A stretch of DNA of 64,000 nucleotides from NCBI GenBank assembly GCA_965215125.1, contig OZ244052.1:832713-896712 (forward strand). Reading direction: 5' to 3'. The stretch comes from an uncultured candidatus Porisulfidus sp. (GTDB lineage Bacteria > Pseudomonadota > Gammaproteobacteria > Poriferisulfidales > Oxydemutatoraceae). The position numbers and the translations under genes are program-made. Shown piece after piece: positions 4,201 through 61,170 of the stretch (position 1 is the first letter of the stretch; each line of letters begins with the position of its first letter). The notes beneath the pieces are model-generated. The model had not been told where the DNA came from, did no database searches, and saw only the letters and a program-made list of their open reading frames with translations.

Positions 4201-6897
4201 ATGGCAACAAAACTAGTATTGGTAGACGGCACCGCTTATCTATATCGTGCGTATCACGCACTGCCACCTTTAACCGGGCCTGCAGGACAACCGATCGGGG
4301 CGGTCTTCGGCGTAGGGAAAATGTTAAAAGCACTGATTAGGCAAGAGACGCCCGATTATTTTGCGGTCGTGCTCGATGCGCACGGCAAAACCTTCAGACA
4401 CGAGCTATACCCTCCGTATAAAGCACAAAGGCCACCGGCACCGGAGGATTTGATTGCCCAATCGGACACTTTGAAACACCTTATCAACGAGCAAGGTTAC
4501 CCGCTATTGGAAGTCCCCGGTGTAGAGGCGGACGATGTCATCGGTACGCTGGCTCGCAGTGCCGAGGCGGCAGGTTGGGAGGTGCTGATCTCTACCGGCG
4601 ATAAAGATATGGCTCAGTTGATCTCCGAGCGTATTACGCTAGTTGATACGATGAAGAATCAACGCATCGACTCCGATGCAATACAAAAGAAATTCGGTGT
4701 GCTACCGGAGCAGATGATCGACTACCTAGCCTTGGCAGGAGACAGTGCCGACAATATCCCCGGAGTTGTCGGTGTCGGACCTAAAACCGCGGCGAAGTGG
4801 CTTTGCGAATATCAAAACCTAGACGAAGTTATTGCACACGCAGACTCTATCACCGGCAAGGGCGGCAAAGCCCTACAAGATGCACTGCCCAAGCTACCTC
4901 TTTATAAAGATTTGGTGACCATACGCTGCGATATAACGCTGGACCACACGATTGACCAGTTAAAAATTACCGCACCCGCACCTGAGCGGTTAATCGCTTT
5001 CTATCGTGAATACGGATTTACCCAATGGCTCAAAGAAGAAACCGACGAAGCTGCCGACACGGTCGCCGAGCCAAGCACACCGATCGAACAGCCTAAATAT
5101 CAACTGATTTTGACGCAAGACACATTGGATTATTGGCTGGAAAAACTAAAGTCGGCAGACTGCTTTGCACTCGATATAGAAACGACAAGTCTGGACTATA
5201 TGCAAGCGCAGATCGTGGGATTATCGTTTGCGGTTGCTGCCGGCGAAGCTGCATATCTGCCTGTGGCACACGATTATTGTGGTGCGCCTAAGCAGTTGTC
5301 CATAGATTTGGTCTTAGCGCAGCTGCGTCCTTTATTGGAAGATCGAAAGATCGGCAAATTAGGACACAACCTTAAATACGATATGGAAGTACTGCTGAAC
5401 TACGACATTCGCTTGCAAGGCATCAGACACGATTCTATGTTGGAATCGTACGCCTATAATTCGGTTGCGAGCAGGCATAACCTAAAAGAGCTCGCATACA
5501 AATACCTCAATATTCGGATGCAAACATACGAGGATATTACCGGCAAAGGTGTCAAGCAAAGACCATTTGTTCAGATCGCAGTGAGAACCGCCGCCGAATA
5601 CGCCTCAGCCGATGCCGATTATAGCTTGCAACTACATGAATATTTTCATCCTCGCTTGAAAAAAACCTTACCGTTGCTCAAGGTCTACGAGGAAATAGAA
5701 ATGCCGTTGTTGCCGGTCATCGCCGAGATAGAACGCACCGGCGTGCTGATCGATGCCGACCGTTTGTCCGAACACAGCCGTGAATTGCAAGAAGCAATCT
5801 CTCAAACCGAACAACAAATTTATCAACTGGCAGGACACGATTTTAATATCGCCTCACCCAAACAAATACAAACCGTGCTGTTCGACGAAGCGGAACTGCC
5901 GGTGATTAGCAAAACCCCCAAGGGTCAAGCCTCTACCTCCGAAGACGTGCTACAAGAACTCGCCCACGACCATGAACTCCCGAGATTGATCTTGCACCAT
6001 CGCTCGCTCAGCAAACTAAAATCAACCTACACCGACAAACTACCGCAGCTGATCAATGCCGAGACCGGGCGGGTACACACCTCTTATCACCAAGCGGTTA
6101 CCTCAACCGGACGCTTATCGTCGTCCGACCCCAACCTGCAAAACATTCCTATCAGAACCGCCGAAGGACGGCGCATACGCCAAGCCTTTATCGCCCGCAA
6201 AGGCTATTGCCTCATCGCCGCAGACTACTCGCAGATAGAAATGCGCATCATGGCACATGTATCCCAAGACCCGGGTCTATTGAATGTATTCCAAAAAGGT
6301 ATGGATATGCACCGCGCAACCGCTGCCGAGGTCTTCGGTTGCAAACCGGAGGCAGTCGATGACGAGCAACGACGCATTGCCAAAGCCATAAACTTCGGAC
6401 TGATTTACGGAATGTCGGCATTCGGTCTCGCAAGACAACTCAATATAGATAATAGAGAAGCGGCGGATTATGTGAAAACCTATTTTGAGCGGTTTGCCGG
6501 TGTGCGGACCTATATGGACGACACGCGTGAACAAGCGCGCAAACAAGGTTATGTGGAAACCATCATCGGTCGGCGGTTGTATTTGCCGGAAATCAACGCC
6601 AAGGATGCTCGCCGTAGACGCTACGCCGAGCGCACCGCAATCAATGCGCCGATGCAAGGGTCGGCTGCCGATATTATCAAACGAGCGATGATACGCATTG
6701 CCGAACAATTCAAGGACGACCCGAACGATGCGGTGATGATTATGCAGGTACACGACGAGCTAATTATAGAAGTGGCAGAACCGCATGCCGACGATGTAAT
6801 GAACAAATGCTGTGCCTTGATGGAGTCGGCGGTGGAACTTTCGGTGCCGCTAAAAGTCAACGCGAGTATCGGCAATAATTGGGACGAGGCGCACTGA
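4201..6897 (+). CDS. polA: DNA polymerase I
   Basis: 898 aa; 5-prime nuclease N-terminus (LVLVDGTAYLYRAYHALPPLT); 3-5 exo and polymerase motifs (RRxAKAINFGLIYG, QVHDELI). Confidence 0.95.
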   Translation: MATKLVLVDGTAYLYRAYHALPPLTGPAGQPIGAVFGVGKMLKALIRQETPDYFAVVLDAHGKTFRHELYPPYKAQRPPAPEDLIAQSDTLKHLINEQGYPLLEVPGVEADDVIGTLARSAEAAGWEVLISTGDKDMAQLISERITLVDTMKNQRIDSDAIQKKFGVLPEQMIDYLALAGDSADNIPGVVGVGPKTAAKWLCEYQNLDEVIAHADSITGKGGKALQDALPKLPLYKDLVTIRCDITLDHTIDQLKITAPAPERLIAFYREYGFTQWLKEETDEAADTVAEPSTPIEQPKYQLILTQDTLDYWLEKLKSADCFALDIETTSLDYMQAQIVGLSFAVAAGEAAYLPVAHDYCGAPKQLSIDLVLAQLRPLLEDRKIGKLGHNLKYDMEVLLNYDIRLQGIRHDSMLESYAYNSVASRHNLKELAYKYLNIRMQTYEDITGKGVKQRPFVQIAVRTAAEYASADADYSLQLHEYFHPRLKKTLPLLKVYEEIEMPLLPVIAEIERTGVLIDADRLSEHSRELQEAISQTEQQIYQLAGHDFNIASPKQIQTVLFDEAELPVISKTPKGQASTSEDVLQELAHDHELPRLILHHRSLSKLKSTYTDKLPQLINAETGRVHTSYHQAVTSTGRLSSSDPNLQNIPIRTAEGRRIRQAFIARKGYCLIAADYSQIEMRIMAHVSQDPGLLNVFQKGMDMHRATAAEVFGCKPEAVDDEQRRIAKAINFGLIYGMSAFGLARQLNIDNREAADYVKTYFERFAGVRTYMDDTREQARKQGYVETIIGRRLYLPEINAKDARRRRYAERTAINAPMQGSAADIIKRAMIRIAEQFKDDPNDAVMIMQVHDELIIEVAEPHADDVMNKCCALMESAVELSVPLKVNASIGNNWDEAH

Positions 6898-15541: not shown

Positions 15542-16927
15542 TTGCGGGGGGGCATATTCTATACAATGAAAGAGAACGATAACAATTATACACACAGCCA
15601 GTGGAGTTCTCGCTTCGTATTCATTATGGCAGCAATTGGTTTTGCGGTTGGTCTGGGTAATATATGGCGTTTCCCCTATATCGTCGGAGAGTATGGCGGT
15701 GGTGCTTTCGTATTACTCTATATATTCTTTATAGTACTGATGGGCTTGCCGGCCATGATGAGCGAGATCATGCTAGGTCGTCTGGGCAAGCACAACACCA
15801 TAGATACTTTTACACATTTTCGCTCCGAATACGGAACTAGTTCATTCTGGAAAATAATCGGTTTGATGGGGATTATAACGGGTATCTTGATTCTATCCTT
15901 CTATAGCGTAATTGCCGGGTGGGTCCTGTCTTATATACCCTATTCCGTGCAAGGTGTTTTTGAAAATCAATCGGTCGAAGGTATTGCGAGTATTTTCGAT
16001 GAACTCACCGCAAACCCCGGTCGTATGATTTTGTGGCACACCTTATTTATGATAATCACTGCGATCGTATTTATGCGCAACATCAATGCCGGCGTAGGGA
16101 GAGTAGTCTCTTATTTTATGCCGTTGCTACTACTACTGATAATCGCAATGATGATCTACAGTGCTTATGAAGCCGATATGGGACAAGCCATACACTTCCT
16201 GTTTAGATTCAGTTGGGATGACTTCAGTACCGAGATGGTCATAGTTGCTTTAGGGCAAGCATTTTTTTCATTGGGTATCGGCATGGGTGCGGCAATGATA
16301 TATGGTTCTTATTTACCGAACCGAGTACCGTTATTAAGCACAACCGCTATCATCGCCACAGCCGACACTCTGGTCGCTATTTTTGCCTCCTTGATGATTT
16401 TTCCTATTTTGTTTTCCTTTAATCTAGAGCCGGCAGCAGGGCCAGGCTTAATTTTTAAGACTCTTCCTATTGCTTTCTCACAAATGCCCGGAGGTGATTT
16501 AGTAGGCTTCACATTTTTCATATTACTTTTTATCGCTGCCTGGACCTCGGCTTTCTCGTTGTTGGAACCTTTCGTTGCGTGGTTGGTAGAATATACTCGC
16601 TGGACACGCGGGCAAGCTGCCGCAATCGCCGCCGGTTTGATTTGGTTGTTGGGCTTCGCAACTATCTTTTCTTTTAATATATGGCAAGAAGTCAAACTAG
16701 GAGGAATGACACTGTTTGACTTGGTGGATAAATTCACCGCCAATATCACGCTACCCTTGGGCGGGTTGTTGATTACTCTGTTTGCCGGTTGGTTTTTGCC
16801 TGCGATGGCAAGCAAAAAACAACTTAATTTAGGTTCCGAGTTGCATTATCGGATATGGCGATGGAGCGTACGCTATTTCTGCCCGATCTTGATATTGGCC
16901 ATTATGATTGCCAGTTGGATAGCTTAA
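15542..16927 (+). CDS. sodium-dependent transporter, neurotransmitter:sodium symporter (NSS/SNF) family
   Basis: 461 aa; the hallmark WSSRFVFIMAAIGFAVGLGNIWRFPY motif of NSS transporters; 11-12 predicted TM segments. Confidence 0.85.
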   Translation: MRGGIFYTMKENDNNYTHSQWSSRFVFIMAAIGFAVGLGNIWRFPYIVGEYGGGAFVLLYIFFIVLMGLPAMMSEIMLGRLGKHNTIDTFTHFRSEYGTSSFWKIIGLMGIITGILILSFYSVIAGWVLSYIPYSVQGVFENQSVEGIASIFDELTANPGRMILWHTLFMIITAIVFMRNINAGVGRVVSYFMPLLLLLIIAMMIYSAYEADMGQAIHFLFRFSWDDFSTEMVIVALGQAFFSLGIGMGAAMIYGSYLPNRVPLLSTTAIIATADTLVAIFASLMIFPILFSFNLEPAAGPGLIFKTLPIAFSQMPGGDLVGFTFFILLFIAAWTSAFSLLEPFVAWLVEYTRWTRGQAAAIAAGLIWLLGFATIFSFNIWQEVKLGGMTLFDLVDKFTANITLPLGGLLITLFAGWFLPAMASKKQLNLGSELHYRIWRWSVRYFCPILILAIMIASWIA

Positions 16928-27336: not shown

Positions 27337-28298
27337 TCATTTATAGGGTCGGATATAGCCATAGCCTCTATTTCCAGGAGTAGTTCGGTGCGGCACATCT
27401 GTCCTTCGAACACCTGCAATTCAATATCCAAACCTAAATGTCTATCAATCAGTGTAGCGATGTCTGCCGATACGCGCTTGTCTACATACAGTTTGATGTG
27501 TCGCAATCGTTCAATCGGCATTTTGCTATAACGATGTTCTGTTTTGGCTGCTTCGCTCAATAACGAGTTTAGATTATTTACTATCTCGTTTAATTGTGCG
27601 TCTGCATCACCCTCGTGCAAGCTCTCGTGGCCTACGATTGCAGCGGTGCCGGAGATATAAAGATGACTTTTGCCCCCCCATTGTTTTAGCGTTGCACGCG
27701 CAAACATAGGGGCTGGTTCTACATAGTGCTTGGGGTACATATACGGTAAAGTCTGACGAGGATTTTTGACGGCGATACCCGCTTTGCGAGCCGCAACAAA
27801 ATAGACTACGCCGTAGTGTGCCCCCGTTCCGATCACGGTGGCAGCGCAATAAGAATCCTCTTTATGCAAGGAAAAAGCCTGCGCCCTTGCATCGCAAAAC
27901 ACTTGATAATCGGATGGTTCGGCAAGTTGTGGCAAATAGTGCCAAACCCTCAACAACGAATAATGTTCCGAGTTTAATAGTTGCACCATATCTTTGTATG
28001 TTTCTCGCAAATCTTCGGCAATACGCTTTTGATCGAGTTCGGCATGCCCGAATAAAACGGCATCGTTGAAGGCATAAGATAATTTCCCGCGTTCTCCGAG
28101 ATGAACCGGTTGGTCGGCATACCAATTCTCAAAAGGTTGTATTTGACACAAAGGCATCAAGTTTGTTTTTATGACATCTTCGGGTGCGTATGCTTTCAGG
28201 GCAATGCTGGCGAGACGGCATGGATGGTCGGATGACAATGGCTCTTTTTCAAGCCGTATATCAAAAGGCATTTGGGGCTGTTGAAAGTGTATTGGCAT
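27333..28298 (-). CDS. FkbO/Hyg5/XanB2-like chorismatase candidate (N-terminal domain + RidA/YjgF-like C-terminal domain)
   Basis: 321 aa; the C-terminal about 110 aa (LYISGTAAIVGHE...NEIVNNLNSLL...IKLYVDKRVSAD...ELQVFEG...EIEAMA) fits the RidA/YjgF fold; the two-domain size matches the FkbO-family chorismatases; translationally coupled to mutM (4-bp overlap). Confidence 0.35.
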   Translation of the reverse strand: MPIHFQQPQMPFDIRLEKEPLSSDHPCRLASIALKAYAPEDVIKTNLMPLCQIQPFENWYADQPVHLGERGKLSYAFNDAVLFGHAELDQKRIAEDLRETYKDMVQLLNSEHYSLLRVWHYLPQLAEPSDYQVFCDARAQAFSLHKEDSYCAATVIGTGAHYGVVYFVAARKAGIAVKNPRQTLPYMYPKHYVEPAPMFARATLKQWGGKSHLYISGTAAIVGHESLHEGDADAQLNEIVNNLNSLLSEAAKTEHRYSKMPIERLRHIKLYVDKRVSADIATLIDRHLGLDIELQVFEGQMCRTELLLEIEAMAISDPINE

Positions 28299-28299
28299 C

Positions 28300-28630
28300 G
28301 CAAAAATAGAATCGCCGATTAAGCCGGTAGGTCAATCGGCGTGACTTTGTGCAGAACCTCAACATGATTGCTAAATGCATGCATTACAAAATGTAATAGC
28401 TGCTTGCGCCACCCAATTACGCAAACCACCTGCGCCGTATGGTTTTGGTTTCCATAAATCGGGTGGATGTATAAATTGTTCAGATACGACACAACCACCC
28501 CATGGAAAGGCTTTACATATTGTACTATGTACAAAGGTTCTGCACAAAGTGACACCACTTGTGCTACTGCAACAAGCGGTGGTTCTATTGCGCCTGCCAC
28601 CCCTCCACAGGAGGGGAATTGACTCGTGCA
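28300..28630. repeat. large composite repeat block (module a, module b, module a-inverted, module c-inverted)
   Basis: gccgattaagccggtaggtcaatcggcgtgactttgtgcagaacctcaacatg ... acacaaccaccccatggaaaggctttacatattgtactatgtacaaaggttctgcacaaagtgacaccacttgtgctactgcaacaagcggtggttctattgcgcctgccacccctccacaggaggggaatt; produces the overlapping spurious ORFs 28319..28642, 28371..28631 and 28375..28698. Confidence 0.8.
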
Positions 28631-48213: not shown

Positions 48214-49589
48214 AATTAATTCGTAATTTTTTTTATGCTCTTATTGTCTGCAACTCCATAACTGGGAATTATGTATTTAACCTGACAAGGTTTTTAGCCT
48301 TGCCATGTTCAACCATTTTTTGACGCTTCACAGACCAACAAATGTTGCAATCTCGACACCCGATAGCGGCACTCCCAGCCGCCATAATGTTTAATGCAGC
48401 ATTGATGTCCGCATTGCCCTCGTGTCCGCAGTACTGACACTTAAATATCGCTTGTGTTTTGCGGTTAGCTTTATTTACGCTTCCACATTTATTACAGGTT
48501 TGACTCGTGTAGTGTGCCGGCACTTTCTCCACATGGGCTTTGTAGCTTAAGCATTGCTCTAGCCTACTCCAGCCACTCTTTAGTATCTCCCTGTTCAAAC
48601 CTGACTTCGCCTTCACATTCTTACTCGGGCTGTCTATCGTCCCCTTCGCCGACTTCGTCATGCCTGCTGTATTCAATCCTTCCATATAAACACTATCGTA
48701 TTTATCTGCTATTAGCTTGTTGGTTTGATGACTCCAATTCGCTCTCACAAATCGCTCCGCTTGATATGCGCTCTGTAGTCTATGCTTCGCTAGCTTTCGT
48801 CTATTGCTCCCCTTGACCCGTCTTGCCACCATTCGTTGATAGTGCCTACGCCTTGCTTCCTTAAGCTTTAGGTCGGGTAGGTGATATATCGTTCCGTCCG
48901 ATAATGCTATCTGTCCCACATTCCTATCCAAACCCACTTCCTTTAGCATGTGCGGTTTGTCCGCTATCTCTACTTCATAAGTGATATAAGCATACCAGTT
49001 TCCGTACTCATGCTTCACTTGACCCGATACAAACTTCTCACCTTTATACCTATCCCCACCGGCAAACTTCATCCAACCAACCTTCTGTATGTAAATATGC
49101 TCGCCCGCTATTCGTGCTGTTTGCTTATCTATTGAAAATGAAGGATTATATGTATATCTGCTGTGAAACTTCGGCAATCCGCCATTACCAGTAAAGAAGT
49201 TTCTATAGCTAGTTTCTATTGGTTTTAATGACATCTTCACTATATAAGCGGAATATCCTTGCAGCCACTTGTCGCAATGCTTCCGCAAAGTCGTAAATTG
49301 CTTGCCTATTGTGAAATAACTAAACCGGCTCTCCCCGTAATACTCGTACTCGTCTCTCAACTTCTCTACAAAGTGATTCCAAACATATCGGCATGCGCCT
49401 GCAGTCCCGTGTAGCTTCTGGTGTTTCTCTTTTGTCGCCGGGTAAAGGCGATAGCGGATTGTTCTGTGGATTTTCATTGGTTTATTTTAACATTTTCTTG
49501 TCAAGTTATATGCATAATTCCGACTCAAGTAAATAGAATATCACCACTTGCTTCAAATGAACCGGCACTATACCCGTGCAGATACGACG
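48214..49589 (-). mobile_element. IS1341-like (tnpA-less IS605-family) element, approximate limits
   Basis: The tnpB ORF with about 55 bp to the yaaA start on one side and about 110 bp before the next repeat-family copy on the other; the ends are not defined by visible hairpins, so the limits are approximate. Confidence 0.4.
48269..49477 (-). CDS. tnpB: RNA-guided endonuclease TnpB (IS200/IS605 family OrfB, IS1341-like solo)
   Basis: 402 aa; N-terminal OrfB_IS605 region; RuvC-I GLDRNVG; RuvC-II YMEGLN; zinc finger CNKCGSVNKANRKTQAIFKCQYCGHEG; RuvC-III NADINAALNI; all three catalytic acidic residues present; no tnpA nearby. Confidence 0.85.
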   Translation of the reverse strand: MKIHRTIRYRLYPATKEKHQKLHGTAGACRYVWNHFVEKLRDEYEYYGESRFSYFTIGKQFTTLRKHCDKWLQGYSAYIVKMSLKPIETSYRNFFTGNGGLPKFHSRYTYNPSFSIDKQTARIAGEHIYIQKVGWMKFAGGDRYKGEKFVSGQVKHEYGNWYAYITYEVEIADKPHMLKEVGLDRNVGQIALSDGTIYHLPDLKLKEARRRHYQRMVARRVKGSNRRKLAKHRLQSAYQAERFVRANWSHQTNKLIADKYDSVYMEGLNTAGMTKSAKGTIDSPSKNVKAKSGLNREILKSGWSRLEQCLSYKAHVEKVPAHYTSQTCNKCGSVNKANRKTQAIFKCQYCGHEGNADINAALNIMAAGSAAIGCRDCNICWSVKRQKMVEHGKAKNLVRLNT

Positions 49590-49700
49590 GGGCTGTTGAA
49601 AAAGTATTCACGAACTGTAGGACGGTACATTCCCCTCCTGTGGAGGGGTGGCAGGCAGAGCCTGACGGGGTGGTTAATTCCCCTCCACAGGAGGGGAATA
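49590..49700. repeat. composite repeat (ggggctgttgaaaaagtatt module + module c + inverted-loop c half)
   Basis: acggggctgttgaaaaagtattcacg...attcccctcctgtggaggggtggcaggcagagcctgacggggtggttaattcccctccacaggaggggaat, between the tnpB upstream end and the tgt stop. Confidence 0.8.
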
Positions 49701-54001: not shown

Positions 54002-54110
54002 AGCCTCCCGCGACCGCCGATCTTCGGCACCCAGTTGCATTGCTACCGTTGCTTCCTTCCGAACCTGGCGGGGTTCACAACAAACTGCCGCGAAGGAGCC
54101 GTCGCGAAAG
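54002..54110 (-). ncRNA. ffs: 4.5S RNA / signal recognition particle RNA (ffs)
   Basis: The minus-strand sequence contains CCAGGUUCGGAAGGAAGCAACGG matching the universally conserved SRP RNA domain IV (E. coli AGGUCCGGAAGGAAGCAGCC); the flanking arms can pair (CGCGAC...GUCGCG); position immediately upstream of dnaX matches the common ffs-dnaX linkage; ends approximate. Confidence 0.65.
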
Positions 54111-54212
54111 ACCAGTATATTATACCGTATCTAGACCCACCGCGTCATTAATATTTCCCTCCTGTGGCGAGGAGTTGCGGAAGTGTCTGCACGAGTATAG
54201 TACTGGTTCATT

Positions 54213-55370
54213 TTGGCTCAAAGTGTTAAAATTGTAGGTGAGATGGGTATTTCTGGGGCGGCACAAACACGCTTAAATGCGATGTTAAAAAAATTTCAGA
54301 CACTGGCGCAAAGTCAGGTCGGGTACCCCTGCAATCAGAAATTCGATTATTCGGAACTATCGGTTTTTATACGCTATTGTCTGAACAATGTCGGCGACCC
54401 CTTTCACAAAAGCAATTTTCTCAGCAACACCCACCAAATAGAACGGGAAGTTATCGCCGAGTTCGCCGACTTGATGCACCTGCCACAAGCGCAGGCATGG
54501 GGCTACGTTACGTCCGGCGGCACCGAAGGCAATATGTACGGTTTGTATTTGGGACGCGAGTTATATCCGAAGGGTGTCGTGTATTTTTCGCAAGATACGC
54601 ACTACAGCATACTCAAAATTTTGCATGTGCTCAATGTGCGCAACATCATGATCAAAAGCCAAGATAACGGTGAAATAGATTACGACGACCTTTACGAGAC
54701 CATACGCATACACCGAGATGTCCCGGTAATTTTCATGGCGAATATCGGAACGACGATGAAGGGTGCGGTTGACGACTTGAGCAAGGTGCATAACATATTG
54801 AGCGATTTAACGGTCAACAATTTCTACATACATGCCGACGCTGCGTTAAGCGGCATGATCTTGGCTTTCGTCGACGACCCGCAACCCTACGACTTTGATG
54901 CCGGCATAGACAGCATAGCAATCAGCGGTCATAAATTAATCGGTGCGCCGTTGCCGTGCGGCGTGGTGCTGACCCGCCGCGATTATGTCAACCGTATCGC
55001 CCGTGCGATTGAATATGTCGGTGTTTTAGATACTACTTTGCCGGGGTCGCGCAACGCATTAACGCCCTTGATGTTGTGGTATGCGTTTGAGAAGTACGGT
55101 CGCGCCGGCTTTAAGAGCGTAGTGGCAGACATGCTTGCGGTTGCCGAGTATGCGGTGTTGCGTTTCAACAAATTCGGTGTCAAAGCGTGGCGCAACAAAA
55201 ACTCGGTCACGGTCGTCATTCCTAAACCTTCGGACACATTTCTGCACAACTGGCAAGTTGCCTCGGAAGGAGACATTGCCCATATCATCACCATGCCCCA
55301 TGTGGATCGCACGCTTGTAGACCGACTGGTGGATGAATATGTAAAAGACAGACAGACACAAGCGGCATAG
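54213..55370 (+). CDS. PLP-dependent group II decarboxylase, histidine decarboxylase-like
   Basis: 385 aa; the Gram-negative HDC-like size and motifs WGYVTSGGTEGNMYGLYLGRE and the PLP-lysine region SGHKLIGAPLPCGVVL; an alternative start upstream is possible. Confidence 0.55.
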   Translation: MAQSVKIVGEMGISGAAQTRLNAMLKKFQTLAQSQVGYPCNQKFDYSELSVFIRYCLNNVGDPFHKSNFLSNTHQIEREVIAEFADLMHLPQAQAWGYVTSGGTEGNMYGLYLGRELYPKGVVYFSQDTHYSILKILHVLNVRNIMIKSQDNGEIDYDDLYETIRIHRDVPVIFMANIGTTMKGAVDDLSKVHNILSDLTVNNFYIHADAALSGMILAFVDDPQPYDFDAGIDSIAISGHKLIGAPLPCGVVLTRRDYVNRIARAIEYVGVLDTTLPGSRNALTPLMLWYAFEKYGRAGFKSVVADMLAVAEYAVLRFNKFGVKAWRNKNSVTVVIPKPSDTFLHNWQVASEGDIAHIITMPHVDRTLVDRLVDEYVKDRQTQAA

Positions 55371-55384
55371 GGAGAACTCGTATC

Positions 55385-55777
55385 GTGAAAAGAATTATTA
55401 TCATGGCCGAAAACAGGGTCGGAGTTATCGCCGACATCGGCAAAGTACTAGCCGACGATAAGATCAACATAGAGGCGTTGGATGCCGAAAGTACCGGAGA
55501 CGACGGCATCGTTATATTGATGACCGATGATCCCGACGGTGCTTTACACGCATTGACATACGCCGGGTTTAAGGCAGTGAGCGACGAGGCATTGATCCTC
55601 AAATTGAAGGACGAACCGGGGGCACTCGCTAAAGTTGCCGAGCAATTCAAACAAGCCAATCTCAATATACGCAGTTTTCACATACTCGGTCGCAAAGCGG
55701 GCTATTCTATGGTTGCGTTGACTACCGACGATAGAGCAAAAGCTCAAGCACTCATAGACGACAAATACATCATATAA
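55385..55777 (+). CDS. tandem ACT-domain protein
   Basis: 130 aa; two ACT-like beta-alpha-beta-beta-alpha-beta units (RVGVIADIGKVLADDKINIEALDAES...; EPGALAKVAEQFKQANLNIRSFHILGR); 14 bp after the decarboxylase gene. Confidence 0.55.
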   Translation: MKRIIIMAENRVGVIADIGKVLADDKINIEALDAESTGDDGIVILMTDDPDGALHALTYAGFKAVSDEALILKLKDEPGALAKVAEQFKQANLNIRSFHILGRKAGYSMVALTTDDRAKAQALIDDKYII

Positions 55778-55782
55778 ACACA

Positions 55783-55960
55783 TGGGGCTGTTGAAAAAGT
55801 ATTTCATACATCATAGGGGCGGACTTGCATGTCAGCCCGTAACGCGTTATGCCTGCACGATTTATACATTCATTCATCCAATTTATGGAAACCAAAACCA
55901 TACGGCGCAAACGGTTAAGTTTGTGCAAAACGGTACTTTTTCAACAGCCTCACATCACTA
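55783..55960. repeat. inverted-repeat (MITE-like) element
   Basis: Left arm atggggctgttgaaaaagtatttcat; right arm acggtactttttcaacagcctcacat (16-bp perfect arms ggctgttgaaaaagta); a spacer of about 125 bp; the same arm sequence occurs singly at 49590. Confidence 0.6.
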
Positions 55961-55961
55961 G

Positions 55962-56405
55962 ATGAAAAAAACGCAAGACTCGGTTGACCCGTTTGCCGAA
56001 GTCAACCGCAACCGATCTATCCTTGAAGTGAGTATGCAAATACAAAAAATCGCACAACACTATCGTTTTGATTGGCGCAATGCAAAGGGTGTGATTGCCA
56101 AACTCTACGAGGAACTGGAAGAGATAATTGAAGCGGACACCGACACGCCCGAGCGGGAACAGCGTATTGAGGAGGAACTGGGAGACTTTTTATTTACTGC
56201 GATAAGTCTGGCTCGGCACTATTCCATAGACCCCGAGGTTGCCTTGGACGAGGCTAACCGTAAGTTTGAACGTCGCTTTGAAAAAATGGTAGAGATTATA
56301 AAGGATAACGGTTCAACTATCGGCCGTGCCACCAAAGAACAGATGGAAGATGCCTGGCACAAAGCAAAGGAACAGGAAAAAGAATCGGTTGAGGCGAACC
56401 CATAG
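55962..56405 (+). CDS. MazG-like nucleoside triphosphate pyrophosphohydrolase domain protein
   Basis: 147 aa; the EExxE...ELGD MazG signature (LYEELEEIIEA...EEELGDFLFTAISLARH). Confidence 0.65.
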   Translation: MKKTQDSVDPFAEVNRNRSILEVSMQIQKIAQHYRFDWRNAKGVIAKLYEELEEIIEADTDTPEREQRIEEELGDFLFTAISLARHYSIDPEVALDEANRKFERRFEKMVEIIKDNGSTIGRATKEQMEDAWHKAKEQEKESVEANP

Positions 56406-57959: not shown

Positions 57960-58448
57960 TTATTGATTGGATAGCTTGTTGGGTGGTGGGTCATCGTTTG
58001 TAACCGGAGGGCACTTTATGCTTTCAAAGCCTACTAAAGCGATATTAAATGTCGGGGTTCTTATCGGCACACGATTATCGTAAAGCCAGTTATATTGTAT
58101 GTTGTAGGCTTGCACTTCTCTTGCCTTCCAAGTCAGGCAGTCGTTTTCCAGAGACGGTATGTTGTGTTTATACTGCACATAATGAACTAATTCGTGTAGC
58201 AAGATACCACGCGCTTGCATGTTGTTTTGAACATCCAGCGTATTTTTAAGATATACAGTCTCGTCTTCGTTGGAAAACCAGCCTAGTACATTTCCGCACG
58301 ACTCACCGTCGCAGGCCTTGGCTTCAATTTGCGTTTGCGGTACAAACCGAACTTCCGGAGCGGCGATTTGCGAATCGGTGATATACATGGCAGTATTGAT
58401 ATATACCATCAATGCACTGACGATTGCTTGTAGTGAAGTTAACTCCAT
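57960..58448 (-). CDS. small secreted HExxH zinc-metallopeptidase-like protein
   Basis: 162 aa; hydrophobic N-terminus; LHELVHYVQ contains HExxH. Confidence 0.4.
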   Translation of the reverse strand: MELTSLQAIVSALMVYINTAMYITDSQIAAPEVRFVPQTQIEAKACDGESCGNVLGWFSNEDETVYLKNTLDVQNNMQARGILLHELVHYVQYKHNIPSLENDCLTWKAREVQAYNIQYNWLYDNRVPIRTPTFNIALVGFESIKCPPVTNDDPPPNKLSNQ

Positions 58449-58461
58449 TATTCCGATTCCT

Positions 58462-59271
58462 TTATGCAGCGATTACAGGCCATTGCGATTCGTATATTTT
58501 TTTTCTCGAATCTATCGCTTTGGCAAATAATACGTCATCGCTTTCGGTAGCTAGATAAGAAAAATCAAAGCTTGGATTCTCGCTGAAAGAGATATCACCT
58601 TCAACTGCAAACACGACTTCGTCAAGGCGATTTTTAATCTCCACCTTTTCAATATAGTGCGGAGGAATAAAAAGAAGTGTTTGCTGGTCTTTTTGTAGAC
58701 CCGAGTAATTAGGATGTGTGATGACAAGATGAAGATCGCGCATTTTTGGATTGTTGGTCGCCTCGTCTTGTATCAGTTGCATTTTCCCCATAGTCAGTTT
58801 AGACATAGGGTCAACTTCCATCGGTGGCGCAGAACACCCGCCGGAAGCTTTAACAAAAGTCTTATTCATATAAAGTTTGCCGTCGTTGGTTTCCGAGACT
58901 ACGCGGACATTACTATAAGTATTGACACGGATACGAGTTGATATATCTGCCGTACCGTTTTTCGGCGATAAAGAAAATTTGGCTGCGACCGGAGACGGGT
59001 TCTCGTCGACTATCAAATGGTGGTTTTTAATAAATTTGTCTGTTTCTTGCGGAAAGCGCGAGGCAATCGTTATCGGCACATCACCGCCGTTAGGAGGACG
59101 CTCGGGTGCTATAACCGAAATCCATTGACTTCCGTCATCCACAGGACGGTCCTGAAACAGAAAATTGCGAATATCCGTCCATGCTTGTTCTTGTTCTGCC
59201 CAGACATTTCCGAACTTAGCGGCGATACCCGTTGCAGCACTATACATTAAAAATTTGCGTCTGCTAATCAT
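58462..59271 (-). CDS. Tat-exported SoxY-SoxZ-like fusion protein (putative covalent sulfur carrier)
   Basis: 269 aa; twin-arginine signal SRRKFLMYSAATGIAA; mid-protein GGC motif (KTFVKASGGCSAPP) like the SoxY C-terminal GGCGG swinging arm, followed by a second beta-rich domain of about 110 aa. Confidence 0.35.
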   Translation of the reverse strand: MISRRKFLMYSAATGIAAKFGNVWAEQEQAWTDIRNFLFQDRPVDDGSQWISVIAPERPPNGGDVPITIASRFPQETDKFIKNHHLIVDENPSPVAAKFSLSPKNGTADISTRIRVNTYSNVRVVSETNDGKLYMNKTFVKASGGCSAPPMEVDPMSKLTMGKMQLIQDEATNNPKMRDLHLVITHPNYSGLQKDQQTLLFIPPHYIEKVEIKNRLDEVVFAVEGDISFSENPSFDFSYLATESDDVLFAKAIDSRKKIYESQWPVIAA

Positions 59272-60180: not shown

Positions 60181-61170
60181 ATGAAGCGTAGAACATTTTT
60201 GAGTGTCGGGGCGAGCCTAATAATGTTGTCTATGATCGACCTAAAGCGTGGTTTTGGTTCGCCTCGACCCAAAGTCGGCATGGTCTACGATCCGTTATTT
60301 TCCGAAGATTGGCGCGTACACGACCATCCGGAATCGCCTATGCGCTACCGGTCAATAATCGACGGTTTCGAGCAAAACGACATATTGAGGCAAACTTCAA
60401 AAATAGAATTATTAGACGAAATTGAGCCTTCATTGCTGACGGTACATAATAAAAAACATATTGATACGATTAGAAAATTTTATGTTTATGCGCACGATGT
60501 TGCGTCGGCAGCGGTTGGTGCCGGATTGGCTGCTGTCGACGCAGTTTGTAGCGGTACGCACAATAGCGTTTTTTGTGCCGTACGCCCGCCGGGTCATCAC
60601 GCCTTAAATACCGGCCGGGAGGAAGGCTTTTGTTTTTATAACAATGTTGCCGTCGCCGCGCGTTATGCACAAAACAAATATAAGCGTAAGAAAGTCTTAA
60701 TCGTAGACTGGGATTACCATCACGGCAACGGTACGGAGGCAGTATTTTACGAGGATCCGTCGGTGCTTTTTTTCTCCACACACGATTATCGCGCTTATCC
60801 GGGAACCGGAAATCCGACCAGAGTCGGTGCCGATAAAGGCAAAGGATACAATATCAATGTGCATTTGGATTGTGGCGCAAACGATGAGGATATTATCAAT
60901 GCATTCAACGACATATTGATTCCTGCTGCGCACCGCTTCAAACCCGACTTGATATTGATATCGGCAGGATTTGATAGTCGCAAAGACGATTTATTGGGTT
61001 GCTTCGACATTAGCGACGAGGGTTTTGCTCGGTTGACGCATATCGTGCGTAATCTTGCAGACGAATACTGCGACGGATGTATGGTATCATTACTGGAAGG
61101 GGGGTATAGTTTATCGGGACTGGCAAATGCCACGGTCGCACACCTGAAAGCGATGCTCGATATGTCCTGA
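60181..61170 (+). CDS. histone deacetylase-family amidohydrolase (AcuC/Aph-like)
   Basis: 329 aa; the HDAC signature VDWDYHHGNGTE, FSTHD, and ISAGFD. Confidence 0.8.
   Translation: MKRRTFLSVGASLIMLSMIDLKRGFGSPRPKVGMVYDPLFSEDWRVHDHPESPMRYRSIIDGFEQNDILRQTSKIELLDEIEPSLLTVHNKKHIDTIRKFYVYAHDVASAAVGAGLAAVDAVCSGTHNSVFCAVRPPGHHALNTGREEGFCFYNNVAVAARYAQNKYKRKKVLIVDWDYHHGNGTEAVFYEDPSVLFFSTHDYRAYPGTGNPTRVGADKGKGYNINVHLDCGANDEDIINAFNDILIPAAHRFKPDLILISAGFDSRKDDLLGCFDISDEGFARLTHIVRNLADEYCDGCMVSLLEGGYSLSGLANATVAHLKAMLDMS

Follow-up and report, generated by a model that had tools for sequence, protein, structure and literature searches.

The closest described relatives of the enzyme reported here are the pyridoxal 5'-phosphate (PLP)-dependent histidine decarboxylases (HDCs; EC 4.1.1.22) of Gram-negative bacteria, represented by those of Photobacterium phosphoreum (7ERU/7ERV), Klebsiella aerogenes (Hdc) and Vibrio anguillarum (AngH), together with the plant serine and alanine decarboxylases (SerDC and AlaDC). 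In the plant enzymes, substrate choice depends on the third residue of a Y-P-X motif (Tyr111 in SerDC, Phe106 in AlaDC), whose swap changes specificity, while replacement of Tyr111 of the Arabidopsis enzyme (AtSerDC) by Ala, Leu, Val or Trp abolished the activity on serine (PMC11407765). A literature search that did not reach most subscription journals returned no PLP amino acid decarboxylase under the control of an ACT domain or ACT subunit. Here we describe a candidate for such a system, a pair of genes located between positions 54243 and 55777 of a 64,000-nucleotide stretch (hereafter, the window) of contig OZ244052.1 from an uncultured candidatus Porisulfidus sp. (assembly GCA_965215125.1), encoding a group II PLP decarboxylase and a stand-alone tandem-ACT protein. 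We consider it rather probable that the pair belongs to an ACT-regulated decarboxylase subfamily, apparently undescribed, whose substrate is not histidine.

The decarboxylase and ACT genes are conserved as a pair

Among GTDB species genomes the window enzyme had 533 matches, and related proteins in metagenomes ran into the thousands. The close clade was defined by relatives 67-97% identical to the window enzyme, from 80 species-representative genomes plus 7 loci retrieved by exact-sequence look-up, and in all these 87 loci an ACT homologue (47-95% identical) was found immediately downstream and on the same strand. A wider group of 80 metagenome loci was also inspected, 76 of which had enough downstream sequence to be informative. 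An ACT module followed the decarboxylase in 62 of those 76, fused to it in 4 cases and encoded by a separate gene in 57, the commonest arrangement being a 4-nt overlap between start and stop codons (34 out of the 57 separate pairs). This was also the arrangement of the unfused pairs found in a Bryobacteraceae genome and in another lineage, where the start of an ACT gene of 131-133 aa overlapped the decarboxylase stop by 4 nt. The divergence of the two proteins was correlated (Spearman 0.69).

Moreover, at least 13 natural fusions carrying a C-terminal ACT pair were identified (P0122, P0123, P0391-P0394, P0439, P0457, P0458, P0478, P0490, P0501 and P0502). P0122 and P0123 came from a search of cluster representatives, and a search with P0123 added eleven further fusion clusters (511-593 aa), among them one with an Opitutales label; twelve fusions anchored the paired alignment of fused and separate forms. 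P0123 is present on two independent contigs and its C-terminal ACT module is 45% identical to the window ACT protein over 123 aa (E 2e-33). The AlphaFold2 (AF2) model of P0123, with a predicted local distance difference test (pLDDT) of 85.9 and a predicted TM-score (pTM) of 0.70, shows two canonical ACT units joined to the body of the decarboxylase by a disordered linker spanning residues 384-401.

A neighbour-joining (NJ) tree, which is a simple distance method, was built with 56 sequences, 370 columns and 100 bootstrap replicates. All the ACT-linked enzymes (sponge-type, other unfused and fusions) were gathered in a single clade (89%), the ACT neighbour of the "other unfused" tips having been individually checked for P0402 and P0455 only. 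The validated HDCs formed a separate clade (100%) that did not include the window enzyme, and the window sub-clade was monophyletic (100%). An earlier and sparser NJ tree had left two fusions on unresolved deep branches, but denser sampling brought them into the one ACT-linked clade. Fusions appeared at several places inside this clade and therefore fusion or fission has taken place repeatedly. The adjacency of the two genes is far beyond chance, and the decarboxylase and the ACT protein very probably act as one unit. An earlier note, made from the sequence alone, had suggested such a functional coupling, for which strict synteny now gives strong support, as do the 4-nt overlaps, the natural fusions and the correlated divergence of the two proteins. 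It had also allowed that the enzyme might belong to a well-characterised decarboxylase clade or that the ACT protein might be a common housekeeping gene; however, the window enzyme fell in no well-characterised clade (89% for its own clade, 100% for that of the HDCs), and the ACT protein comes from a small family that travels with the decarboxylase. This ACT family yielded 358 matches, nearly all of about 130 aa, which are named no further than "hypothetical protein" in any source.

No third conserved gene that could reveal a pathway was found when all the open reading frames (ORFs) of 82 close non-redundant loci were clustered, the next family being present in at most 22 loci, and none was found in 84 broader loci either. 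The two verified HDC loci examined (L094 and L095) have recognizable contexts, with AngH inside the anguibactin cluster and the K. aerogenes hdc accompanied by an antiporter and genes annotated as hisS, whereas a histidine/histamine antiporter with hisS, or a siderophore cluster, was absent from the window and from more than 160 related loci. Among the other contexts, one locus (L098, 6001-8516) has ilvE directly upstream of the decarboxylase-ACT pair and genes for an amino acid permease and an M20 peptidase after it. P0127 (L089, 5001-7250), the sister lineage to the ACT clade, carries Y-P-C and lacks an ACT gene; a bona fide threonine synthase gene (TIGR00260, 288 bits) follows 7 bp downstream, which may hint at a threonine-related substrate in that lineage. 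The ilvE and thrC contexts are single cases and we did not build on them. The contexts of distant Y-P-C members all differed, with OCD-family and Pro_racemase-family genes after P0123, topoisomerase and DprA genes near P0146, and phage-like ORFs near P0134. Two candidates were discarded: P0429 (717 aa), an apparent IlvE-decarboxylase fusion, proved to be a frameshift artefact in which the IlvE C-terminus runs on in another frame, and the AmgK/MurU-like genes downstream in L001, considered as an ethanolamine kinase/cytidylyltransferase route, resemble cell-wall recycling genes and are absent from the window.

We also observed a Y-P-V subgroup (L159-L168, L175 and L177-L179; about 56-59% identical to P0402) lacking a detectable ACT gene, some of whose loci share a downstream ORF resembling proline dehydrogenase. 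It may be a derived branch that has lost the regulator.

Anatomy of the pair and putative specificity residues

Both ORFs were confirmed at 54213..55370 and 55385..55777, on the plus strand and 14 bp apart, as the earlier note had described. The first ORF opens mechanically at a TTG at 54213, but the true start of the decarboxylase is probably the internal ATG at 54243, to judge from relatives of 375-376 aa that begin at the same position. Numbered from this methionine, the motifs highlighted in the note lie at residues 86-98 (WGYVTSGGTEGNM) and 228-231 (SGHK). The features of the pair, all on the plus strand, are as follows.

54243..55370, plus strand: group II PLP decarboxylase of 375 aa (PF00282, 89 bits; NF002748, 478 bits)
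54321..54332, plus strand: G-Y-P-C motif with Cys30, aligned with the position that sets substrate specificity in SerDC and AlaDC
54384..54404, plus strand: N-N-V-G-D-P-F loop, aligned with N-N-C-G-D-W of the HDCs
54924..54935, plus strand: S-G-H-K, with the putative PLP Schiff-base Lys231 and phosphate-binding His230, aligned with Lys309 and His308 of the tea enzyme CsAlaDC and invariant among close relatives
55011..55061, plus strand: catalytic-loop Tyr258, aligned with AtSerDC Tyr341, then V-G-V-L-D-T-T-L-P-G-S-R-N-A-L
55370..55375, plus strand: Shine-Dalgarno sequence GGGAGA of the ACT gene, read from the sequence
55385..55777, plus strand: stand-alone tandem-ACT protein of 130 aa with a GTG start (PF01842 twice, PF19571), the proposed regulatory ligand-sensing subunit
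55409..55480, plus strand: ACT1 ligand-loop motifs E-N-R-V-G-V-I-A-D-I (N10, G13) and I-N-I-E-A-L (N28), from the family alignment
55610..55681, plus strand: ACT2 ligand-loop motifs D-E-P-G-A-L-A-K-V and L-N-I-R-S-F-H, from the family alignment

The Shine-Dalgarno sequence overlaps the decarboxylase stop codon (TAG, 55368-55370) and precedes the GTG start of the ACT gene by about 10 nt. A simple scan detected no plus-strand terminator between the two genes.

The PF00282 score, well above the cutoff of 27 bits, placed the window decarboxylase among the group II (fold-type I) PLP decarboxylases, and the complete PLP and catalytic set (the PLP-binding K231 with H230, the ring-stacking H120, D199 at the pyridine N1 with A201, the phosphate-binding G93-T94 and S269, the latter contributed by the other subunit, and the catalytic-loop Y258) matched the residues listed for CsAlaDC and AtSerDC and was invariant in the clade. 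The enzyme was 52-57% identical to ACT-linked members from elsewhere, 43-48% to the HDCs and 39-40% to SerDC and AlaDC of plants (39% to SerDC), and its best match among solved structures was the Photobacterium HDC (7erv; 372 bits, 47.7% identity). It also exceeded the 305-bit cutoff of the NCBIfam "histidine decarboxylase" model NF002748, in agreement with the HDC-like nature that the earlier note had recognized. Nevertheless, in control searches the same model gave 574 bits for a partial Photobacterium HDC and 605 for a Y-P-E representative, but also 454 for the proven AlaDC from tea and 461 for the Arabidopsis SerDC, and members of the family whose specificity residue is C, I, A or V also passed (467-498 bits). 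The label carries no information on the substrate, because proven plant serine and alanine decarboxylases score about the same as the window enzyme. Given an "equivalog" cutoff of 305 against about 574-605 bits for true HDCs, a cutoff near 550 would separate them.

According to the alignment, the third residue of Y-P-X is Glu in the three validated HDCs (Photobacterium 7ERV, K. aerogenes Hdc and AngH). Y-P-C was found in the window enzyme, in 75 of the 81 clade members and in 108 of the 120 members of the wider subfamily. Further differences between the ACT-linked clade and the true HDCs affect loop 51-54 (G-D-P-F versus G-D-W), the residues after the catalytic Tyr, Y-(V/I)-G-(V/T)-L-D-T-T versus Y-I-S-x-(H/R)-D-x-T, and positions 268-273, G-S-R-N-(A/G)-(L/I/V/F) versus G-S-R-N-G-H. 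Thus, where the HDC signature reads Y-P-E, N-N-C-G-D-W, D-Y-I-S-x-(H/R)-D and G-S-R-N-G-H, the window enzyme has Y-P-C, N-N-V-G-D-P-F, E-Y-V-G-V-L-D and G-S-R-N-A-L, with hydrophobic residues at 262 and 273 in place of the His/Arg and His of HDC and SerDC. The plant type was not matched either, as Cys30 is neither Tyr nor Phe, and the C-terminal Cys3-His zinc finger of the plant enzymes has no counterpart in a protein that ends at residue 375 and whose last 46 residues are devoid of Cys.

The pocket is thus predicted to be neutral and more hydrophobic than that of HDC, with the catalytic-loop region nearest to that of the Streptomyces methionine decarboxylase (MetDC; 7CIF), whose PDB sequence reads D-Y-I-G-A-P-D-T-T-F-A-G-S-R-N-G-F. 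With Cys30 in place of Glu, Pro53-Phe54 in place of Trp, and Leu262 and Leu273 where the HDCs have His/Arg and His, respectively, we infer a neutral, non-histidine class of substrate, probably an aliphatic or sulfur-containing amino acid. It seems likely that histidine is not the main substrate, and specificity residues and phylogeny alike favour the suggestion of the earlier note that another amino acid could be decarboxylated. The name "histidine decarboxylase" is very likely a mis-annotation for the subfamily.

In addition, an unannotated HDC-like gene was noticed in Vibrio aquimaris (L096, pTHAF100_a, 4812-6092). It is 52% identical to the Photobacterium HDC, branches beside the HDC clade and displays a mixed HDC/ACT-linked signature (Y-P-V, G-D-W-A and G-S-R-N-G-L).

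The ACT protein as a putative ligand-binding subunit

PF01842 matched the ACT protein in two stretches (57.7 bits), and PF19571, "ACT domain pair", scored 34.6 bits (cutoff 23.5). Its AF2 model (pLDDT 90.2, pTM 0.79) contained two beta-alpha-beta-beta-alpha-beta units (E-H-E-E-H-E twice). Among 37 family members, G13 and N28 of ACT1 were invariant and N10 was at least 90% conserved, whereas in ACT2 the invariant residues were D76, P78, G79, A80, L81, A82, I95, S97 and H99. The glycine of the beta1-alpha1 ligand loop is therefore kept in both domains (G13 and G79). We take the ACT1 loop to be comparable to the Ser site of phosphoglycerate dehydrogenase (PGDH) and the Val site of acetohydroxyacid synthase (AHAS).

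A Foldseek search with the ACT protein retrieved BT0572 (2f06; E 7.6e-10), regulatory beta subunits of aspartokinase and the AHAS small subunit. After BT0572 and YdjB came the tandem-ACT beta subunits of aspartokinase, whose solved structures contain Thr or Lys, and the small subunits of acetolactate synthase. By sequence, the protein does not belong to these families, scoring 22.2 bits with NF008864 (cutoff 119) and 19 with TIGR00119 (56.9), both models of the acetolactate synthase small subunit, and 17.7 with the aspartate kinase model NF005159 (379). A dedicated regulatory subunit is the best model because of the combination of invariant ligand loops, structural neighbours, fusions and translational coupling, and we find it reasonably likely that the ACT part is an allosteric sensor.

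In the G-Y-Q, MetDC-like part of the family, P0185 (561 aa) holds a C-terminal cyclic-nucleotide-binding domain where the fusions hold the ACT pair. On domain content, this appears to be a second, independent ligand-sensing module on the decarboxylase fold.

Proposed mechanism and alternative explanations

We propose that the pair forms a self-contained unit, made of a fold-type I PLP decarboxylase of the homodimer type and a dedicated tandem-ACT regulatory subunit, both produced from one mRNA by coupled translation. The decarboxylase would strip the alpha-carboxyl group of an L-amino acid to yield a primary amine and CO2, with Lys231 forming the Schiff base, His120, Asp199 and Ala201 surrounding the PLP ring and the catalytic-loop Tyr258 acting as proton donor. 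The preferred substrate would most likely be neutral rather than histidine, and probably from the class of Val, Leu, Ile, Met, Thr or Cys. The ACT protein would dock on the enzyme, to whose C-terminus it is tethered in some bacteria by a disordered linker of about 20 residues, and would bind a small effector, most likely an amino acid, at two conserved glycine-loop sites. Amine output would in this way be tied to the amino acid pool, as with the acetolactate synthase small subunit and the aspartokinase beta subunit. The physical complex, the allostery, the direction of regulation and the substrate class are all inferred.

Several observations weigh against this proposal. The substrate class was deduced from four or five motif positions aligned to the structures of other members, and AlaDC, which has a hydrophobic substrate, retains the histidine of G-S-R-N-G-H, so that this position is not a clean predictor. 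By overall identity the closest characterised enzyme is an HDC (47.7%), which is also the name that the curated NCBIfam model would assign to the window enzyme. No ACT gene was detectable in 14 of the 76 informative metagenome loci (13 Y-P-V and 1 Y-P-C), hence the enzyme can exist without it, and only one locus, that with ilvE upstream, ties the module to branched-chain amino acid metabolism. Finally, the AF2 model of the fusion (pTM 0.70) comes without an inter-domain error map, and the docking of the ACT pair is to be read as a proposal.

Alternatively, the enzyme could be a genuine HDC producing histamine, with the ACT protein sensing histidine or a related pool and the active-site differences reflecting a lineage-specific way of binding the same substrate. 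The NF002748 score of 478 bits (above 305), the Photobacterium HDC as best solved-structure match (372 bits) and the name given to relatives in public sources all point in that direction, and histamine from sponge symbionts has been proposed, albeit for a different enzyme of the aromatic amino acid decarboxylase (AADC) type (PMC10570526). We nevertheless judge this unlikely: proven serine and alanine decarboxylases pass NF002748 with similar scores, neutral or hydrophobic residues stand here in place of the Glu (Y-P-E), Trp (G-D-W) and His (G-S-R-N-G-H) kept in the P. phosphoreum, K. aerogenes and AngH enzymes, the HDCs form a clade apart (100% and 89% bootstrap), and no histidine/histamine antiporter, hisS or siderophore genes are present. 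Quite unlikely, in our opinion, is a bacterial serine (or alanine/threonine) decarboxylase that makes ethanolamine or a similar amino alcohol, destined for lipids, glycans or cofactors, and whose ACT partner senses Ser or Thr. The window enzyme shares the N-N-x-G-D-P-F loop and a W-Q motif with the plant SerDC and AlaDC, the ACT domains of PGDH (Ser-binding) and homoserine dehydrogenase are among the best NCBIfam similarities of the ACT protein, and P0127 of the sister lineage sits 7 bp upstream of threonine synthase. However, the window enzyme has Cys at the position where changing Tyr111 of AtSerDC to Ala, Leu, Val or Trp kills the activity on serine (PMC11407765), SerDC Arg262 and His273 are both Leu in the window enzyme, the plant zinc finger is missing from a C-terminal region without Cys, and identity to SerDC is only 39%. 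Threonine as a substrate would be compatible with the neutral class proposed above.

The role of the ACT protein also admits other explanations. It might be required as a structural part, an activator or a ligand carrier, on which folding, stability or full activity depends, without conveying a metabolite signal. AHAS small subunits, after all, also activate their catalytic subunit, fusions demonstrate the joint action of two parts rather than regulation, and the closest structures, BT0572 and YdjB, have no known ligand-dependent function. Yet both glycine-loop motifs and the flanking Asn are invariant, which would be hard to explain without ligand binding, and the 14 subfamily loci without an ACT gene argue against strict dependence, making this explanation very unlikely. 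As for a meaningless adjacency of two unrelated genes that happen to be co-transcribed, its probability is virtually nil: linkage in 87 of 87 and 62 of 76 loci, across several phyla and in otherwise unrelated neighbourhoods, together with repeated independent fusions, correlated divergence and 4-nt overlaps, effectively refutes it. We therefore return to an ACT-regulated decarboxylase with a non-histidine substrate as the favoured interpretation.

Distribution of the subfamily

The closest relatives of the window pair were found in metagenome-assembled genomes (MAGs) that bear the labels Ca. Oxydemutatoraceae (Chromatiales; 97% identity) and Ca. Porisulfidus (94-95%), the latter called a known sponge symbiont in a genome note. 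The rest of the window sub-clade (at least 67% identity) bore labels of Dehalococcoidia/SAR202/Chloroflexota (the majority), Nitrospinota, Alphaproteobacteria and Pedosphaera (Verrucomicrobiota), and included proteins filed under the sponge Geodia barretti. Judging from their names and from the sequencing programme, most sub-clade MAGs would come from sponges, and the sub-clade appears to be concentrated in sponge-symbiont lineages of several phyla. The wider subfamily extends beyond sponges, with Bryobacteraceae, Planctomycetes and Opitutales labels, one contig name containing "sediment" and two TARA prefixes. No literature relevant to the window gene in sponge Chloroflexi was found. The hdc gene of an Amphimedon symbiont (PMC10570526) was considered as evidence on the window family and set aside, as it is diagnosed by Ser354 of long AADC-type enzymes, apparently a different enzyme type.

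The guanine-plus-cytosine (GC) content of the pair tracked that of the flanking DNA in each host (46-66%, r = 0.89), and the pairs are therefore not recent transfers. At the same time, no two decarboxylases of the sub-clade were less than 67% identical despite labels from five phyla. Such identity across phyla, combined with host-adapted GC, points to a function under selection and linked to the habitat, that of producing an amine in step with an amino acid pool, and the amine could serve the sponge symbiosis in this sub-clade. A more ambitious scenario, which we regard as improbable when taken in full, would make the window pair the founding example of a multi-phylum subfamily of ACT-allosteric PLP decarboxylases with a non-histidine (probably aliphatic or sulfur-containing) substrate, systematically mis-annotated, one branch of which, tightly conserved, was taken up and kept by unrelated sponge symbionts (Chloroflexota, Nitrospinota, Gamma- and Alphaproteobacteria and Verrucomicrobiota), with the amine mediating host-symbiont or community interactions.

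Genomic surroundings

The window is core chromosome, with topA, polA, ftsK, gyrB, accC, tgt, queA, dnaX and ffs. The pair is preceded by dnaX and ffs, on the opposite strand, and followed by a MazG-like gene. The absence of the canonical HDC contexts reported in the earlier note holds for the whole window, which carries no siderophore genes and no antiporter adjacent to the pair. Two features lie between dnaX and the decarboxylase.

54008-54104, minus strand: signal recognition particle RNA gene ffs, bacterial small type (Rfam RF00169, 65.8 bits), which fills most of the spacer
54105..54242, plus strand: upstream spacer of 138 bp, which presumably holds the promoter and 5' untranslated region of the pair

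Rfam detected no riboswitch or leader upstream of the pair, ffs being its sole match, and a promoter/terminator consensus scan gave nothing above shuffled expectation, with no plus-strand consensus sigma-70 site in 54105..54242.

Two other genes of the window are amine- or amino-acid-related, and neither is conserved with the pair: an SNF-family sodium:neurotransmitter symporter (15542-16927, plus strand), 38 kb away, and a secreted-looking protein of the histone-deacetylase family, acetylpolyamine amidohydrolase-like (60181-61170, plus strand), 4.4 kb away. A fused SoxY-SoxZ-like carrier (58462-59271, minus strand) matched TIGR04557, "quinoprotein dehydrogenase-associated SoxYZ-like carrier", with 228 bits (cutoff 140), and adjoins a small putative metallopeptidase-like ORF (57960-58448). 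Between yaaA and tgt sits a TnpB-type gene (48269-49477, minus strand) with Cas12f1-like TNB, OrfB_IS605 and HTH_OrfB_IS605 domains; no TnpA ORF was evident next to it.

The spacer between the ACT gene and mazG (55770-55965) is filled by a 32-nt imperfect inverted repeat, 78% complementary, whose arms are 132 nt apart. Its 18-mer core, GGGGCTGTTGAAAAAGTA, had 4 matches versus 0.05 expected, including an exact copy beside tnpB (49589-49608) and a copy with 2 mismatches at 28273-28291, and a 29-nt internal piece of the element is repeated at 28431-28459. From its sequence the element looks like a small dispersed repeat, possibly derived from IS200/IS605 (MITE/PATE-like, i.e. resembling miniature inverted-repeat or palindrome-associated transposable elements), and it may be the cause of the downstream neighbours differing from those of 95%-identical relatives.

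Implications and comparison with known systems

The label of "histidine decarboxylase" that pipelines give to such genes is probably wrong, and surveys that read the histamine production of microbiomes, including sponge holobionts, from counts of "hdc" genes would then be misled. The fusions and the strictly coupled pairs offer a small, soluble-looking system for the study of ACT control over a fold-type I PLP enzyme, and the subfamily provides a route to new substrate specificity governed by the Y-P-X switch. Both the enzyme fold and the type of regulatory module are known, but we have not found their combination reported, and the specificity is probably new.

Compared with the Gram-negative HDCs, the window enzyme has the same fold, a similar length (about 375-386 aa), 43-48% identity, and all the PLP and catalytic residues, sharing S-G-H-K, H-A-D-A-A, the catalytic-loop Tyr and G-G-T-E-G-N. 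Unlike them, it carries Y-P-C for Y-P-E, G-D-P-F for G-D-W, Y-V-G-V-L-D for Y-I-S-A-H-D and G-S-R-N-A-L for G-S-R-N-G-H and, in contrast to the two verified HDC loci, it has a dedicated ACT partner and no antiporter/hisS or siderophore context. With the plant enzymes AtSerDC (8JG7) and CsAlaDC (8JIK; 39-40% identity) it shares membership in the short HDC-like group II subfamily, N-N-x-G-D-P-F, the Y-P-X architecture and the catalytic Tyr, but it differs in having Cys for Tyr/Phe, Leu for the catalytic-loop Arg and His, no N-terminal extension, no C-terminal zinc finger, and an ACT partner. Streptomyces MetDC, an HDC-like group II enzyme acting on hydrophobic amino acids, resembles it in G-D-P-F, Y-(I/V)-G-x-x-D-T-T-(F/L) and the hydrophobic residue after G-S-R-N-(G/A), although it is much more distant (122 bits), longer (557 aa), contains large insertions and has G-Y-Q-A for G-Y-P-C; no ACT partner was seen in the one locus of a MetDC homologue examined (L097).

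On the regulatory side, the stand-alone tandem-ACT proteins of unknown function BT0572 (2F06) and YdjB (9VP8) are the closest by sequence (E 5e-7) and by fold (E 7.6e-10), with the same size and layout, but they are only 26-27% identical to the window protein and, to our knowledge, have no decarboxylase partner. IlvH/IlvN and the aspartokinase beta subunit are likewise small ACT-type proteins encoded by a separate (or overlapping) gene, and they were recovered with a Foldseek probability of 1.00 and a PF22629 (ACT_AHAS_ss) score of 43.6 bits. A different arrangement of the two ACT units keeps the TM-scores to them at only 0.4-0.5, and the window protein falls far below the NCBIfam cutoffs (22 versus 119 bits). 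Amino acid effectors bind to these known subunits, which dock on their catalytic partner, whereas the partner of the window ACT protein is a PLP decarboxylase.

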